This document shows positions 1 to 4,940 of a DNA stretch of 4,940 nucleotides, in pieces (the stretch's first letter is position 1; each line of letters begins with the position of its first letter). Location: IMG/VR virus record IMGVR_UViG_2913177423_000007. One strand, written 5' to 3'. The notes beneath the pieces are model-generated. The model had not been told where the DNA came from and made no database searches. It was given only the letters and a program-made list of their open reading frames with translations. The position numbers and the translations under genes are program-made. Origin of the DNA: a virus. Taxonomy: Duplodnaviria; Heunggongvirae; Uroviricota; Caudoviricetes.

Positions 1-837
1 GAATTACCGATCCACTACAAAATTGAGCAGACCGAAGACGGCAGGCATTATGTCGCGGGGCTTGGCCTCAGCATGGAGGATACAGAGGAAGGCAAACTGA
101 GCCAGTTCCTGGTTGCCGCTAACCGTATCGCGTTTATTGACCCGGCAAACGGGAATGAAACGCCAATGTTTGTAGCGCAGGGCAACCAGATATTCATGAA
201 CGAAGTGTTCCTGAAGTATCTGACGGCTCCCACCATTACCAGCGGCGGCAATCCGCCGGTATTTTCCCTGACACCGGACGGGCGGTTGACGGCGAAAAAT
301 GCCGATATCAGCGGTAACGTGAATGCGAACTCCGGGACGCTCAACAACGTCACGATAAATGAGAACTGTACGATTAAGGGAATGCTCGAGGCTACTCAGG
401 TCAAAGGTGACTTCGTTAAAGCTGTATCTAAGCCATTCCCGAAAAAAACTGGCTCGTGGGGCAATACGGAAACACCAGGCGGGACGGTTACAGTCACCAT
501 TTACGATGATCATAACTTTGACCGCCAAATCATTATTCCGCCCATTATTTTTAACGGTATGGCGTATGACGATCCGGGGAGCGGTAATAACCCGGGAGGT
601 ACGCGATACACGGGTTATGGTTTTGAAGTTCGCAAAAACGGCGTATTAATCGCATCCAGAGAAACTAAAGGGGCCATTCCCGGTAGTTACAGTGCGGTTA
701 TTGATATGCCGAGTGGTGGTGGTAGCGTCACTCTGGAGTTTAAGATTTTCCAGAAAGGCAATCAGGGCGCAGGTAACATCACAGACTGTACGGTGATTGT
801 GACCAAAAAAGCTGCTTCCGGTATCAGTATCCGTTGA
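1..837 (+). CDS. C-terminal 278 codons of a large tail protein, 5'-truncated by the window edge; most likely the distal part of a J-like host specificity (central tail fibre) protein
   Basis: Frame 1 is open from nt 1 with no stop until TGA at 835-837. The ORF track entry 73..837 is just the first in-frame Met. The protein is Gly/Asn/Thr-rich, like beta-rich fibre distal domains. It sits directly upstream of an Stf homologue, as J does in lambdoid phages. The J assignment rests on synteny and general character, not on a recognised motif. Confidence 0.7.
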
Positions 838-886: not shown

Positions 887-897
887 GTGGAGTGAGT

Positions 898-3273
898 ATG
901 GCAGTACAGATTTCAGGTGTGCTGAAAGATGGTGCGGGAAAACCAATACAGAACTGCACTATTCAACTGAAGGCAAAGCGTAACAGCACCACGGTACTGG
1001 TGAACACGGTGGCCTCTGAAAATCCTGATGAAGCCGGGCGTTACAGCATGGATGTTGAGTATGGCCAGTACAGCGTCACCCTGTTGGTTGAAGGTTTTCC
1101 GCCTTCACATGCCGGGACCATTACCGTCTATGAAGGTTCCAGACCAGGTACGCTGAATGATTTTCTCGGTGCCATGACGGAAGAGGATGTCATGCCGGAG
1201 GCATTGCGTCGTTTTGAGGAAATGGTGGAAGAAGCGGCACGCAACGCCGAAGCCGCCTCTCAGAGCGCAGCGGCGGCAAAGAAATCCGAAACTGCAGCGG
1301 CTTCATCGAAGAACGCGGCGAAAACCTCAGAAACGAATGCAGCTAACAGCGCACAGGCGGCAGCGTCCTCGCAGACTGCATCGGCAAACTCCGCGACAGC
1401 AGCCAAAAAATCAGAAACCAACGCGAAAAACAGCGAGACAGCCGCAAAGACGAGCGAAACCAACGCAAAGTCCAGCCAGACGGCAGCGAAAACCAGCGAA
1501 ACGAATGCCAAAGCCAGTGAAACTGCGGCGAAAAGCAGTCAGGATGCAGCAGCTGAAAGCGAGAGTGCGGCGGCCGGTTCTGCGACTTCAGCAGCCGGAT
1601 CAGCAACTGCTGCGGCTAACAGCCAGAAAGCTGCGAAGACGAGCGAAACTAACGCAAAGTCCAGCCAGACGGCAGCGAAGATCAGCGAAACGAATGCTAA
1701 AGCCAGTGAAACTGCGGCGAAAAGCAGTCAGGATGCAGCGGCCCAAAGCGAGAGTGCCGCAGCTGGTTCTGCAAGTGCGGCTGCTGCTTCTGCCACTGCA
1801 GCAGCCAACAGTCAAAAAGCAGCAAAAACCAGTGAAAACAACGCAAAGGCGAGCGAGACTGCGGCGGCTAACTCGGCGAAAGCATCCGCTGCAAGCCAGA
1901 CGGCTGCAAAAGCAAGTGAAGACGCAGCCAGAGAGTATGCAAGCCAGGCTGCGGAGCCGTATAAACAAGTTTTGCAGCCGCTTCCCGATGTGTGGATACC
2001 GTTTAACGATTCACTGGATATGCTTGCTGGCTTTTCGCCTGGTTATAAGCAAATAACTGTAGGTTATGATGTTATTAAAATGCCATCCGATAAGGTTGTT
2101 AGCTTCAAACGCGCATCAGGTGCAACATACATTAATAAATCAGGAGTATTAACCGTTGCTGAAGTTGACGAACCGCGATTTGAACGAGAAGGTTTGCTGA
2201 TTGAAGGACAAAGAACCAACTATCATCTTAATTCACTTACACCATCTAAGTGGGGAGCTACAACAAGTGTAACTATAACAGAAAGTGGTGTTGATGAGTT
2301 TGGCTTTACTTATGGGCGGTTTCAAATAAAGGACGAAAAAATTGGGACAAATACGACAATGAATATCGCTGCGGTTTCAGGAGGAAGAGGTGTCGATGTT
2401 ACTGGAACTGAAAAGTATGTTACAACATCATGTCGTGTAAAAAGCGATAGTGCTAATATACAATGTCGTATAAGATTTGAAAGATATGACGGGTCCGCAT
2501 ATTTTTATCTGGCAGATGCATATCTTAATATAACAGATATGTCCATTAGAAAAACGGGAGGAGGGGCTGCAAGAATAACCGCCCGAGCGGAGAAAGAATC
2601 TAATGGATGGATTTATTTCGAGGTTACATATCAATCTGAAGCTATTGATAATATGGTTGGCTCTCAGATCCAAATTGCTCCACCTGTTTCACCTGGAACT
2701 TATTTGGGCGGGGAATATTTGGATGTTACGACACCACAATTTGAAGGCGGCTCATGCGCATCATCTTTTATCATTTCCGATACAGTTGCATCAACGCGAG
2801 CAAGCGATATTGTTACATTGCCTTGCAAAAATAACATGACCAGCAAACCTTTAACCTGCATGGTTGAAGTGAATAAAAATTGGTCTATAGCACCAAATTC
2901 CGCGCCTAGAATTTATGATATAACAGGATTTAAAACAAAAGACGACGCTTTTGTTTTTGCATTCAGAAATACAGCAGGTAGTGTAGGAACTCCATATGTT
3001 CAATTTGGTAATCCAATATCATTTCCACCTGGAAATTACCCAAGAAAGATTATCGCTGTATATAGAATAAAAAGCGATGGCAAGTTTCAGGCTGGCTGCA
3101 ATGGGGTTTTATCAACACCAGCATCAACAACGTGGAAGAGTGTTAATGGTGCTACAGGTATAAGGATTGGAGGTCAGACTACAGCCGGCTTACGTCATTT
3201 ATTTGGTCATATCAGGAATTTTAGAATATGGCATAAAGAATTAACCGATGCGCAAATGGGAGAGGTAATATAA
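898..3273 (+). CDS. stf: Side tail fibre protein, 791 aa: lambda Stf-like N-terminal region, Ala/Ser/Thr/Lys-rich repetitive shaft, divergent AT-rich C-terminal distal region
   Basis: The N-terminus MAVQISGVLKDGAGKPIQNCTIQLKAKRNSTTV...GRYSMDVEYGQYSV...GFPPSHAGTITVYE...PGTLNDFL closely matches my recollection of lambda Stf (MAVKISGVLKDGTGKPVQNCTIQLKARRNSTT...). The following KTSETNA(K/R)SS repeats are also as in lambda Stf. ATG at 898 is preferred over the track's GTG at 892 because GGAG at 889-892 gives a 5-nt spacer. Stop is TAA at 3271-3273. Confidence 0.9.
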   Translation: MAVQISGVLKDGAGKPIQNCTIQLKAKRNSTTVLVNTVASENPDEAGRYSMDVEYGQYSVTLLVEGFPPSHAGTITVYEGSRPGTLNDFLGAMTEEDVMPEALRRFEEMVEEAARNAEAASQSAAAAKKSETAAASSKNAAKTSETNAANSAQAAASSQTASANSATAAKKSETNAKNSETAAKTSETNAKSSQTAAKTSETNAKASETAAKSSQDAAAESESAAAGSATSAAGSATAAANSQKAAKTSETNAKSSQTAAKISETNAKASETAAKSSQDAAAQSESAAAGSASAAAASATAAANSQKAAKTSENNAKASETAAANSAKASAASQTAAKASEDAAREYASQAAEPYKQVLQPLPDVWIPFNDSLDMLAGFSPGYKQITVGYDVIKMPSDKVVSFKRASGATYINKSGVLTVAEVDEPRFEREGLLIEGQRTNYHLNSLTPSKWGATTSVTITESGVDEFGFTYGRFQIKDEKIGTNTTMNIAAVSGGRGVDVTGTEKYVTTSCRVKSDSANIQCRIRFERYDGSAYFYLADAYLNITDMSIRKTGGGAARITARAEKESNGWIYFEVTYQSEAIDNMVGSQIQIAPPVSPGTYLGGEYLDVTTPQFEGGSCASSFIISDTVASTRASDIVTLPCKNNMTSKPLTCMVEVNKNWSIAPNSAPRIYDITGFKTKDDAFVFAFRNTAGSVGTPYVQFGNPISFPPGNYPRKIIAVYRIKSDGKFQAGCNGVLSTPASTTWKSVNGATGIRIGGQTTAGLRHLFGHIRNFRIWHKELTDAQMGEVI
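1260..1930 (+). repeat. Low-complexity coding repeat region (the Stf shaft) with roughly 7/14-residue periodicity
   Basis: Translation is dominated by reiterated motifs such as KTSETNAKSSQTAA, KTSETNAKASETAA and KSSQDAAAESESAA. The reverse strand stays open here only because of GCN-rich codons. Confidence 0.8.
1441..1818 (+). repeat. In-frame tandem duplication, 2 x 189 bp (63 codons each): copy 1 at 1441-1629, copy 2 at 1630-1818, with a degenerate partial third copy from 1819 to about 1866
   Basis: Direct alignment in the sequence: gccgcaaagacgagcgaaaccaacgcaaagtccagccagacggcagcgaa... at 1441 against gctgcgaagacgagcgaaactaacgcaaagtccagccagacggcagcgaa... at 1630. The first ~110 nt of each copy are near-identical. 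Differences are mostly synonymous third-position changes. Confidence 0.85.
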
Positions 3274-3554
3274 TGCGAGATTTAATTATCAAATTCACAG
3301 ACAAGGCCGACTTTTCGGCCTTTATGGATAGCATTGGTTATTATGATGACGAGATGATGCAGAACGATGTTCTCATTGATGTAATAGGTGACGTATACAA
3401 AGAAACAGGCGAACTTACTGAAGATGGCGAGCCGGTATGTGTTAAGGAAGACGGATATTTTGTAAACGTGCGCATCATTAATGATTCGCAAATATCGTCA
3501 TTATTCGATGAATACGCGGTTGCTGTTGAGCATCAACTTCGTGGCTGGATGTGA
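3273..3554 (+). CDS. Hypothetical small acidic protein, 93 aa, translationally coupled to stf; function unknown
   Basis: Its ATG at 3273-3275 overlaps the stf stop TAA at 3271-3273 (TAATG). GGGAGAGG at 3258-3265 is a Shine-Dalgarno sequence 7 nt upstream. The protein is Asp/Glu-rich with no predicted transmembrane segment. I recognise no family and see no resemblance to lambda Tfa. Confidence 0.6.
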   Translation: MRDLIIKFTDKADFSAFMDSIGYYDDEMMQNDVLIDVIGDVYKETGELTEDGEPVCVKEDGYFVNVRIINDSQISSLFDEYAVAVEHQLRGWM

Positions 3555-3563
3555 GGAAGAAAA

Positions 3564-4604
3564 ATGGCTACATCGACAGTAATTCCTGATGACATCAAAA
3601 CGCTAAAATCCGATGTTAGCAAATTAAAAAACGATCAAGGAAGCTACGTAACAAAATCATATGTAGACAGCAAAAATGAAACCGTTAATGACTGGTCTGC
3701 TGCATGGTATCAGCAGGTACTGCCAACTAGCGGAGCTATATTTGGGCGAAAACTTCGCTCAACTCACAGGACGGCAGGTGTTGAGGATGCGTATTGCGAA
3801 CTATACCTTAAAAAATGGATAGACAGCCCAGGGAACGCAATGGCGCGCCTTAACCTGAACGATAACGGTGAAAATATTTGCTGGGATTTTACCAACCTTT
3901 ACGGCGGAACAATGATCTTCCCTGGTACTTCAGGTTATCTGAAAATGGGGAACTGTCTCATGTCGTATGGTGTGCGGGGAAGTAACGCGCTTATTAAGTT
4001 TGATAATACAGACACATTACAAATCAAATACGCTAATCATGGGTCAACCATGACATTAAACACACAGGGAACCGCTCACGCTGGCGTAACAACTCGACTA
4101 TGGGGCAATTCTAGCCGTCCGGTTGTTTATGAAGTTGGCGTAGATGAGGCTCTGTATATGTTCTACGCACAGAAAACTACCAGCAATACCTACGAATTAA
4201 CGGTTAACGGCGCGTGCAATGCAAGTGCATTTAATCAAGGCTCTGACCGGGATCTGAAAGACAACATTCAGGTGATCGATAATGCAACTGACCGCATCCG
4301 TAAAATGAACGGCTATACATACACGCTTAAAGAAAACGGTATGCCCTATGCTGGTGTCATTGCACAGGAAGCTCTGGAAGCCATCCCCGAAGCCGTAGGG
4401 TCTATGATGAAATATCCAGACGGTGGGAGTGGATTAGATGGAGAAGAAGGTGAACGGTATTACACTGTAGATTATTCTGGTGTTACTGGCTTGCTTGTTC
4501 AGGTAGCCAGAGAGTCAGACGACAGAATAACAGCACTGGAAGAAGAAAACGCAGAATTAAGACAAAGGTTATCTGCAATTGAGGCGGCGCTTGCGTCTAA
4601 ATAA
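3564..4604 (+). CDS. Short tail fibre/tailspike-like protein, 346 aa, with a C-terminal peptidase S74-type intramolecular chaperone autoproteolytic domain
   Basis: ATG at 3564 has AGGA at 3554-3557 six nt upstream. The C-terminal region reads ...NQG-SDRDLKDNIQVIDNATDRIRKMNGYTYTLKENGMPYAGVIAQEALEAIPEAV...RITALEEENAELRQRLSAIEAALASK. This matches the S-D-x-R-L-K ... GxIAQEλ..λPEAV signature of the chaperone domain of phage K1F endosialidase and T5 L-shaped tail fibre, and ends in a coiled-coil-like tail. Stop is TAA at 4602-4604. Confidence 0.8.
   Translation: MATSTVIPDDIKTLKSDVSKLKNDQGSYVTKSYVDSKNETVNDWSAAWYQQVLPTSGAIFGRKLRSTHRTAGVEDAYCELYLKKWIDSPGNAMARLNLNDNGENICWDFTNLYGGTMIFPGTSGYLKMGNCLMSYGVRGSNALIKFDNTDTLQIKYANHGSTMTLNTQGTAHAGVTTRLWGNSSRPVVYEVGVDEALYMFYAQKTTSNTYELTVNGACNASAFNQGSDRDLKDNIQVIDNATDRIRKMNGYTYTLKENGMPYAGVIAQEALEAIPEAVGSMMKYPDGGSGLDGEEGERYYTVDYSGVTGLLVQVARESDDRITALEEENAELRQRLSAIEAALASK
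4242..4601 (+). other. Predicted S74 intramolecular chaperone domain (residues 227-346), with putative catalytic Ser227 (nt 4242-4244) and Lys232 (nt 4257-4259)
   Basis: SDRDLK is encoded by tct gac cgg gat ctg aaa at 4242-4259, with the Ser-to-Lys spacing of five residues recalled for the endosialidase dyad. The downstream GVIAQEALEAIPEAV block fits the family. Self-cleavage would leave a mature protein of about 226 residues. Confidence 0.65.
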
Positions 4605-4610
4605 TATTAA

Positions 4611-4633
4611 GGGGCCGAGCGCCCCGTTTTATT
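4611..4633 (+). terminator. Rho-independent terminator after the S74-domain fibre gene
   Basis: GGGGC (4611-4615) pairs with GCCCC (4621-4625) around a 5-nt loop CGAGC, followed by GTTTTATT (4626-4633). It starts 7 nt after the stop codon. Confidence 0.6.
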
Positions 4634-4646
4634 GGGTAGGATGAAA

Positions 4647-4940
4647 ATGGATATAACACCTTTCCTTCATGCGCTTTGTGCTGTGGCTGCGCAGCTACTG
4701 ATTGGTCTTTTTACCGGGAACTGGGCTTACGGAGCGATAGCCGGTTGTACGTTCTTCATTGCGCGTGAACACACCCAGGCAGAATATCGCTGGATTGAAA
4801 TGTTCGGGCATGGCAAGCGGATTAACATGCCGTGGTGGGGCGGTTTTGATCCACGCGCGTGGGATGTAGCAAGCCTGATGGATTTTTCTGTGCCGGTGGT
4901 GGCGTGTCTGCTGGTCTGGGTATTTATCCGTTCAACATAA
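4647..4940 (+). CDS. Small hydrophobic protein of about 97 aa, predicted integral membrane protein of unknown function; possible moron or accessory gene
   Basis: ATG at 4647 is preceded by AGGA at 4638-4641 with a 5-nt spacer. An in-frame ATG at 4641 is an alternative; the track's TTG start at 4632 lies inside the terminator T-tract and is unlikely. Hydrophobic stretches ITPFLHALCAVAAQLLIGLF, WAYGAIAGCTFFIA and FSVPVVACLLVWVFI suggest 2-3 transmembrane helices. Stop TAA is at 4938-4940, the last three bases of the window. GC is about 50-60%. Confidence 0.55.
   Translation: MDITPFLHALCAVAAQLLIGLFTGNWAYGAIAGCTFFIAREHTQAEYRWIEMFGHGKRINMPWWGGFDPRAWDVASLMDFSVPVVACLLVWVFIRST

Follow-up and report, generated by a model that had tools for sequence, protein, structure and literature searches.

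A divergent LamG/ConA-like domain at the C-terminus of a lambdoid prophage side tail fibre, a candidate surface-polysaccharide lectin

The window analyzed here, a 4,940-nucleotide (nt) stretch from the Caudoviricetes record IMGVR_UViG_2913177423_000007, is the tail-fibre end of a lambdoid Escherichia coli prophage. It carries an stf-like side tail fibre gene whose product (Stf) very probably terminates, over its last ~155 residues, in a divergent Laminin_G_3/ConA-like jelly roll, as judged from profile searches and structure prediction. We further propose, with moderate confidence, that this LamG/ConA-like tip of Stf acts as a lectin for surface polysaccharide. The open reading frame (ORF) extends from 892 to 3273 on the plus strand, encodes 793 amino acids (aa) and ends exactly in ...GIRIGGQTTAGLRHLFGHIRNFRIWHKELTDAQMGEVI. 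All residue numbers refer to this frame from GTG 892; ATG 898 gives a protein of 791 aa, the numbering used in a first-pass annotation of the same DNA, which had already likened the end of Stf to a lectin domain of this fold.

The terminal domain of Stf belongs to the Laminin_G_3 family

A Pfam search with the whole 793-aa Stf returned the N-terminal PF08400 domain only, with no LamG match; the terminal domain had to be scanned in isolation to bring out the LamG signal. The isolated last 157-161 residues then matched Laminin_G_3 (PF13385) with an E value of 0.0015 and 19.1-19.2 bits, below the gathering cutoff of 27.6 bits. In this alignment, residues 704-788 corresponded to profile positions 69-149 of 151. 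By contrast, several full-length orthologues, 36-41% identical to Stf over its C-terminal 427 aa, scored above the cutoff: AKFV33 orf137 (36.2 bits, covering profile positions 5-149 of 151), P0121 (31.1), P0155 (30.1) and P0135 (28.2), with P0154 within 28-31 bits. A Laminin_G_3 match at E <= 0.01 was obtained for 31 of the 54 aligned family members. Many homologues already carry a precomputed PF13385 assignment, one of them being named 'LamG-like jellyroll fold domain-containing protein' by NCBI. Because orthologues pass the cutoff and the match recurs across the family, the terminal domain of Stf can be placed in Laminin_G_3 by transitive homology.

To this was added a phmmer search with the domain alone against 1.84 billion representative proteins, which gave matches at whole-library E values of 7e-6 to 4e-4. 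According to Pfam, the matched proteins contain multiple copies of Laminin_G_3 (231, 125, 66 and 38 bits). The Stf segment IRIGGQTTAGLRHLFGHIRNFRIWHKELTDAQM aligned with the equivalent motif in the Laminin_G_3 repeats of P0279 (231 bits), P0290 (125) and P0283 (66), and the repeats of P0295 also aligned with the C-terminal motif of Stf. As an example, IRIGGQ-TTAGLRHLFGHIRNFRIWHKELTDAQMGEV of Stf stands opposite IRIGGMPSNAGNQHLYGALDDIRIYDGVLTQQEVGDL of a bona fide LamG_3 protein. Since the alignments to bona fide multi-LamG_3 proteins run through the motif, it is, at the sequence level, a generic LamG_3 C-terminal structural signature. The first-pass reading of the last residues as the C-terminal strand of a LamG domain was thereby borne out.

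Searches of solved structures by sequence were less productive: a single-sequence phmmer search of the PDB with the C-terminal 427 aa gave nothing, and a family-profile search of the PDB recovered the N-terminus of lambda Stf and the RcGTA head-spike fibre, with nothing for the LamG domain. This domain is linked to solved structures by fold comparison only.

Predicted fold of the terminal domain

In an AlphaFold2 (AF2) model of residues 367-793, two all-beta domains were predicted, at 446-621 and 641-793. When this two-domain model was submitted to Foldseek, ambiguous results were obtained, with long and poor superpositions on botulinum toxin Hc domains (template modelling score, TM, ~0.17; root-mean-square deviation ~16 Å). 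Because of this ambiguity, the terminal domain was modelled alone. The model of residues 633-793 (predicted local distance difference test score, pLDDT, 82.1; predicted TM score 0.79) is all-beta, with about ten strands.

Foldseek retrieved 150 matches to this single-domain model in the PDB at E <= 0.001, and the 50 listed were all ConA-like lectin-fold domains (Foldseek probability 1.00, E 3e-5 to 3e-4, TM 0.47-0.67). The listed matches comprised CBM40 modules of sialidases, galectins, the LamG domain of PAPP-A, neurexin LNS2 and pentraxins, the best being CBM40 (6er3/6er4 and 5fra), LEC-6 and galectins -7, -8 and -10. In BFVD, again with a Foldseek probability of 1.00, the first three matches were homologous coliphage tail fibres, and the other named matches were viral proteins mostly called ConA-like or LamG-like. 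The Stf domain thus has in common with Pfam Laminin_G_3 the ~150-residue beta-sandwich and the signature ..IRIGG....lFGhIrn.RIW.k.LtdaQ.., and it differs from it by a sub-cutoff score and by an alignment to the profile that covers the C-terminal half only.

The sialic-acid-binding CBM40 modules and the galectins are similar to the Stf domain in fold, with 10-16% sequence identity. Membership of either family was rejected. For the galectins, which are only fold neighbours at 11-16% identity, PF00337 matched neither the domain (E <= 10) nor any of the 54 family members (E <= 0.01). For CBM40, the likeness is at fold level only (TM 0.52-0.58), no Pfam family other than Laminin_G_3 having matched.

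Two alternative views of the domain can be weighed at this point. First, the 19 bits obtained against a cutoff of 27.6 and the lack of a LamG match for full-length Stf would be expected if a generic beta-rich fibre end resembled LamG by chance. Such an explanation is hardly credible, given the orthologues above the cutoff, the matches in 31 of the 54 members, the bona fide LamG_3 proteins reached directly at E values down to 7e-6 among 1.84 billion sequences, and the concurring, independent fold prediction. Secondly, the ConA-like clan includes, as its name indicates, glucanases and lyases, and the domain might degrade polysaccharide as a GH16-, GH7- or PL-like enzyme (glycanase or lyase) of ConA fold. 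We regard this as very improbable: Pfam scans of the domain and of the 54 members matched neither a glycoside-hydrolase nor a lyase family, non-catalytic lectin, CBM or LamG domains accounted for all of the top 50 fold matches in the PDB, and the domain has only ~155 residues, in whose sequence no ExDxxE-type motif was seen.

The profile search and the AlphaFold model that had been suggested as checks of the lectin-fold claim therefore both agree with it: Laminin_G_3 was matched by the terminal domain, below the threshold here and above it in orthologues, and the model is a beta-sandwich whose listed PDB matches are all ConA-like, so that neither a lack of profile matches nor a different fold was encountered. 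The richness in Gly, Asn, Ser and Thr reported for the end of the protein is real and moderate, these residues making up 31-32% of both residues 520-669 and residues 638-793, which are all-beta in the AF2 model. The interval first assigned to the domain, 2900-3273 (residues 670-793), lies inside it and falls short at its N-terminal side, as the domain starts ~100 nt upstream, at residue ~638 (nt 2803).

A variable core between conserved flanks

Within the whole fibre head, variability is greatest at residues ~679-755, where column conservation is 0.41-0.55. The conserved parts of the LamG domain are its N-terminal strand (TRASD.VT.P) and its last strands and helix (residues 756-790), the consensus of residues 756-793 being GIRIGGQ..G.RHLFGHIRNFRIWHKELTDAQM. 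Homologues that match the middle domain of Stf at 91-96% identity drop to 35-54% in residues 638-755. Conservation hardly differed between strands (0.61) and loops (0.57), which indicates that the variability is regional, residing in 679-755, and not confined to loops.

The same discontinuity was observed at the nucleotide level between the window and the virulent T5-like phage IrisVonRoten. The two are 89.8% identical over nt 1975-2819 of the window, show no detectable similarity over nt 2820-3158 and are similar again over nt 3159-3298. The breakpoint at nt 2819 is sharp and coincides with the start of the LamG domain. Owing to the drop in identity and to this break at the domain edge, the LamG core behaves in these comparisons as an exchangeable, fast-diverging cassette between conserved flanks, as is typical of receptor-binding domains. 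So close a nucleotide match (89.8%) across the junction and the GTA-spike-like middle domain, in a temperate E. coli prophage on the one hand and a virulent T5-like phage on the other, and ending at a sharp breakpoint, also points to temperate and virulent phages having recently exchanged fibre-head modules by horizontal transfer.

A second candidate glycan-binding domain precedes LamG

Residues 436-637, overlooked in the first-pass annotation, matched the NCBIfam family GTA_spike_fiber (NF048003) with 51.7 bits (cutoff 36) and an E value of 1.5e-13, over profile positions 1-181 of 182. The family profile also matched the sequence of Rcc01080, the head-spike fibre of RcGTA (PDB chain 6tb9_F3), with an E value of 7.8e-15, and AF2 predicted an all-beta middle domain with a pLDDT of ~80-95. 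Rcc01080 binds capsular polysaccharide in assays with tagged protein (PMC10218006, PMC7296036) and contributes one subunit to each spike; it is beta-rich and 'lectin-like' by prediction (PMC7296036, PMC10218006), only its residues 2-10 having been resolved experimentally (PMC7296036). The homology with Rcc01080 covers the middle domain of Stf (about residues 400-637) and excludes the LamG domain. The two proteins differ in context, Rcc01080 being a single-copy head decoration and not a tail fibre. Stf thus holds two candidate glycan-binding domains in tandem, a GTA-spike-like domain followed by LamG.

Comparison with characterized fibres

Gp22 of the Tequintavirus IrisVonRoten (Bas32) shares 76% identity with the C-terminal 427 aa of Stf, a figure that rises to ~95% in the junction that follows the Stf shaft and in the middle domain. 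Both phages have the gene order fibre, ~92-aa protein (93 aa in the window), fibre with an S74 chaperone domain. They differ in the N-terminal anchor, which is T5-type via LtfC in IrisVonRoten and of the lambda Stf type in the window, and in the divergent LamG cores described above. The distal fibres also differ: that of IrisVonRoten, of 574 aa, is T-shaped with two receptor-binding domains, whereas the window encodes a fibre of 346 aa which shares with it no more than ~17 aa at the N-terminus and the S74 region. Gp22 was modelled in 2025 as a proximal fibre with Gp24 attached as a distal branch (PMC11990801), and its C-terminal domain was described as 'galectin-like' and suggested to be a possible additional receptor-binding domain (PMC11990801, Fig 12B legend). 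Since PF00337 did not match by sequence, we take 'galectin-like' (PMC11990801) as a description of the fold only. A LamG-type domain is therefore already known in related phage fibres, to which the window Stf adds a divergent example; a literature search for LamG or Laminin_G_3 in phage tail fibres gave nothing relevant beyond the BASEL paper.

With lambda Stf/Tfa, the window Stf shares the PF08400 anchor (9e7m) and the position after gpJ. Its head, consisting of the GTA-spike-like and LamG domains, is wholly different, and an unrelated 93-aa gene replaces tfa. The T5-like phages DT57C and DT571/2 provide another precedent of a two-protein fibre, LtfA/LtfB, the second protein, a fibre equipped with an S74 chaperone, presumably attaching to the first (PMC4728585, PMC10713586). 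Unlike Stf, LtfA of DT57C itself ends in an S74 chaperone and not in a GTA-spike-like plus LamG head (PMC4728585). This S74-type C-terminus (PMC4728585), together with a structure resolved for the N-terminus only (PMC10713586), led us to reject LtfA as the nearest characterized homologue.

Proposed function of the LamG domain

A receptor-binding role for the LamG domain is suggested by its hypervariable core, by the breakpoint at nt 2819 and by the homology of its neighbour domain to the capsule-binding Rcc01080. By analogy, from the fold, the family precedent and the hypervariable, recombining core, we consider it fairly probable that the ligand is a glycan. If the fibre is trimeric like other tail fibres, as we assume, each chain would end in its own GTA-spike-like and LamG lobes. 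The variable LamG face would then serve as a low-affinity, multivalent lectin for surface polysaccharide, most likely the O-antigen and possibly capsule or another glycan. Binding by this lectin would bring about a primary, reversible adsorption of the kind proposed for the lateral fibres of siphoviruses (PMC8594841), and allelic exchange of the LamG core would retarget the fibre.

Several points weigh against this proposal. The window domain itself stays below the Pfam gathering threshold, and variability alone cannot tell a glycan from a protein ligand. LamG and ConA-like domains also mediate protein-protein contacts, and LamG domains bind steroids as well. Finally, although IrisVonRoten infects O16-expressing K-12, recognition of O16 is credited mainly to its distal T-shaped fibre and not to Gp22 (PMC11990801).

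A hypervariable, exchangeable core is expected of any receptor-binding domain, LamG folds are able to bind proteins and lambda Stf has classically been linked to OmpC, all of which would suit a protein receptor, for example an outer-membrane protein, in place of a glycan. This is nevertheless improbable in our view: many of the nearest structural neighbours (CBM40 and galectins) are sugar-binding modules, the adjoining domain is homologous to a capsule-binding protein (PMC10218006), and for the lateral fibres of the siphovirus groups that carry this head the O-antigen has been proposed as the primary receptor (PMC8594841).

If the LamG core does set glycan specificity, it would constitute a compact, swappable cassette of ~340 nt with conserved flanks. 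Host-range prediction or engineering in lambdoid, T5-like and T1-like coliphages would benefit from such a cassette, and it would help to explain how prophage side fibres handle O-antigen diversity. As it stands, the main outcome is the correction of an annotation gap: the window allele, which carries no label more specific than 'prophage tail fiber N-terminal domain-containing protein' or 'phage tail protein', escapes the Pfam threshold and does not represent a new kind of system.

Downstream genes and the position of the LamG head in the fibre

The Stf-type fibre head was found in 217 phage records, from lambdoid phages, Drexlerviridae, Dhillonvirus, T5-like and rV5-like phages. Of these records, 181 also gave a tblastn match to the 93-aa protein, and in all eight loci inspected, drawn from the phage groups just named, its gene lay directly 3' of the homologous LamG-terminated fibre gene. 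No significant Pfam or NCBIfam match was obtained for the 93-aa protein (best Pfam E 0.2), including to tail-fibre-assembly families, and no tfa gene is the next gene downstream of stf in the window; a truncated tfa pseudogene is present further downstream in one related genome. Because its position is that of lambda tfa, the 93-aa protein may be an assembly factor or adaptor of the fibre head.

What follows the 93-aa gene is far less constant. The second fibre of the window carries a C-terminal S74 intramolecular chaperone at residues 227-278. Downstream fibres measure between 235 and 574 aa and have no more than ~17 N-terminal residues in common, the first 17 of the window fibre resembling those of IrisVonRoten Gp24 and AKFV33 orf135. 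After the 93-aa homologue, a 235-aa S74 protein is encoded in SECphi27, two short fibre proteins in KarlBarth, and fibres of 557-574 aa in AKFV33 and IrisVonRoten. Phage 21 (OL657228, 1944-4585) has the same Stf type, the small ORF and the membrane protein, with no second fibre. As the second fibre is missing from phage 21 and the downstream genes vary between phages, the S74 fibre looks, from these gene comparisons, like an optional inserted module, and in the proposed mechanism it would be an optional extra branch.

This arrangement bears on the earlier description of the LamG domain as the distal tip of the fibre. The fibre of phage 21 would end in the LamG head, and the lack of a second fibre makes the Stf head the only candidate receptor-binding part of its side fibre. 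In the window prophage, where the 93-aa gene and the 346-aa S74 fibre come after stf, a further branch probably lies beyond the LamG head, and the description holds less well.

It could also be asked whether the LamG-like domain serves chiefly in fibre structure or docking, binding the 93-aa protein and/or the N-terminus of the downstream fibre to build a branched fibre, and is no receptor lectin. The association with the 93-aa gene in all loci inspected and in 181 of the 217 records, the conserved N-terminal ~17 residues of the downstream fibres and the strong conservation of the last LamG strands are in line with such a role, as is the frequent binding of proteins by LamG domains in general. 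So is the model of IrisVonRoten Gp22 as a proximal fibre bearing Gp24 (PMC11990801). However, the C-terminal motif also occurs in unrelated cellular multi-LamG proteins, so that its conservation needs no partner, and outside this motif the domain varies more than any other part of the head, contrary to what one would expect of a docking surface facing conserved partners. Moreover, phage 21 retains the LamG domain without a second fibre, and the best-conserved candidate docking segment is the junction (residues 357-435), not LamG. We therefore judge a docking role unlikely and retain surface-polysaccharide binding as the preferred function of the domain.

More tentatively, the junction, the GTA-spike-like domain, LamG and the 93-aa gene might together form a self-contained 'lectin head' cassette that moves horizontally. 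In such a cassette, the LamG core, with conserved recombination arms on either side, would be the determinant of O-antigen or capsule specificity, and the 93-aa protein, in the place of Tfa, would be a new assembly factor or adaptor, which is also the probable part it plays for the head in the mechanism proposed above. The cassette would be shared by temperate lambdoid phages and virulent T5-like, T1-like, Dhillonvirus and rV5-like phages and would be kin to the RcGTA head-spike fibre.

Organization of Stf and of the locus

The features of the window are collected in Table 1. Stf is a lambda-type side tail fibre, with the PF08400 anchor present and gpJ upstream, and the family profile matched the lambda tail fibre chain 9e7m_Ta with an E value of 2.6e-30. 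The true start of stf is probably ATG 898, giving a protein of 791 aa, since the encoded MAVQISG corresponds to MAVKISG of lambda Stf (PDB 9e7m).

The shaft contains a 189-nt tandem repeat (2.3 copies, 83% matches, nt 1429-1866), together with 21- and 42-nt sub-repeats. Close homologues have 687 aa as compared with 793 aa in the window Stf, and the difference falls in the shaft, whose length therefore varies by repeat copy number. The family profile also aligned the shaft region with the N-terminal, Ala- and Ser-rich part of a depolymerase, chain 7vz3_A. No segment of the C-terminal region is better conserved than the junction, for which identity to even the remotest homologues is 65-89%; as a monomer it was poorly predicted by AF2 (pLDDT below 50).

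Table 1. Features of the 4,940-nt window, with residue numbers of the 793-aa Stf frame
Feature	Residues	Position (nt)	Strand	Evidence
gpJ 3' end (central tail fibre / tip attachment protein)		73..837	+	Pfam Ig_GpJ_C E 1e-25, Phage_Tail_Tip E 2.4e-18; named gpJ in E. coli genomes
stf-like side tail fibre gene		898..3273	+	ORF; phrog_1419 'tail protein' matched end to end, E 0
N-terminal Stf anchor domain	3-133	898..1290	+	Pfam phage_tail_N PF08400 E 6.6e-67
Ala/Ser/Thr/Glu-rich repetitive shaft	~105-356	1204..1959	+	Translation, tandem repeats
Highly conserved junction, LQPLPDVWIPFNDSLDM...EPRFEREGLLIEGQRTN	357-435	1960..2196	+	Mean column conservation 0.82
Middle beta domain, RcGTA head-spike fibre homologue	436-637	2197..2802	+	NCBIfam NF048003; profile; AF2
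C-terminal LamG/ConA-like jelly-roll domain (predicted)	638-793	2803..3270	+	Pfam Laminin_G_3; AF2; Foldseek
LamG hypervariable core, candidate specificity-determining cassette	~644-755	2820..3158	+	Nucleotide break, identity drop, column conservation
Conserved Laminin_G_3 signature, last strands and short helix	756-793	3157..3270	+	Column conservation 0.74-0.85
Conserved 93-aa acidic protein gene		3273..3554	+	phrog_1361, function unknown; ATG overlaps stf stop (TAATG)
Second (distal or branch) tail fibre, 346 aa		3564..4604	+	Pfam Peptidase_S74 E 3.4e-14; phrog_4563 'tail fiber protein'
Small membrane protein gene, running to window end, outside the fibre		4632..4940	+	phrog_1443

All genes of the window lie on the plus strand, in the order gpJ 3' end, stf, 93-aa gene, second fibre and membrane protein. 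Only ~55 nt (838-891) separate gpJ from stf, from which it follows that lom is absent from the window prophage; in the related E. coli prophage NZ_CP195488, an Ail/Lom family gene lies between gpJ and stf (3729-4328 of the compared locus). The gene arrangement of the window recurs in complete E. coli genomes with 92-95% identity, where the products are labelled 'prophage tail fiber N-terminal domain-containing protein', 'hypothetical protein' and 'tail fiber domain-containing protein'. The product of the last gene is 89% identical to CPT_21_24 of phage 21, a 'putative membrane protein'.

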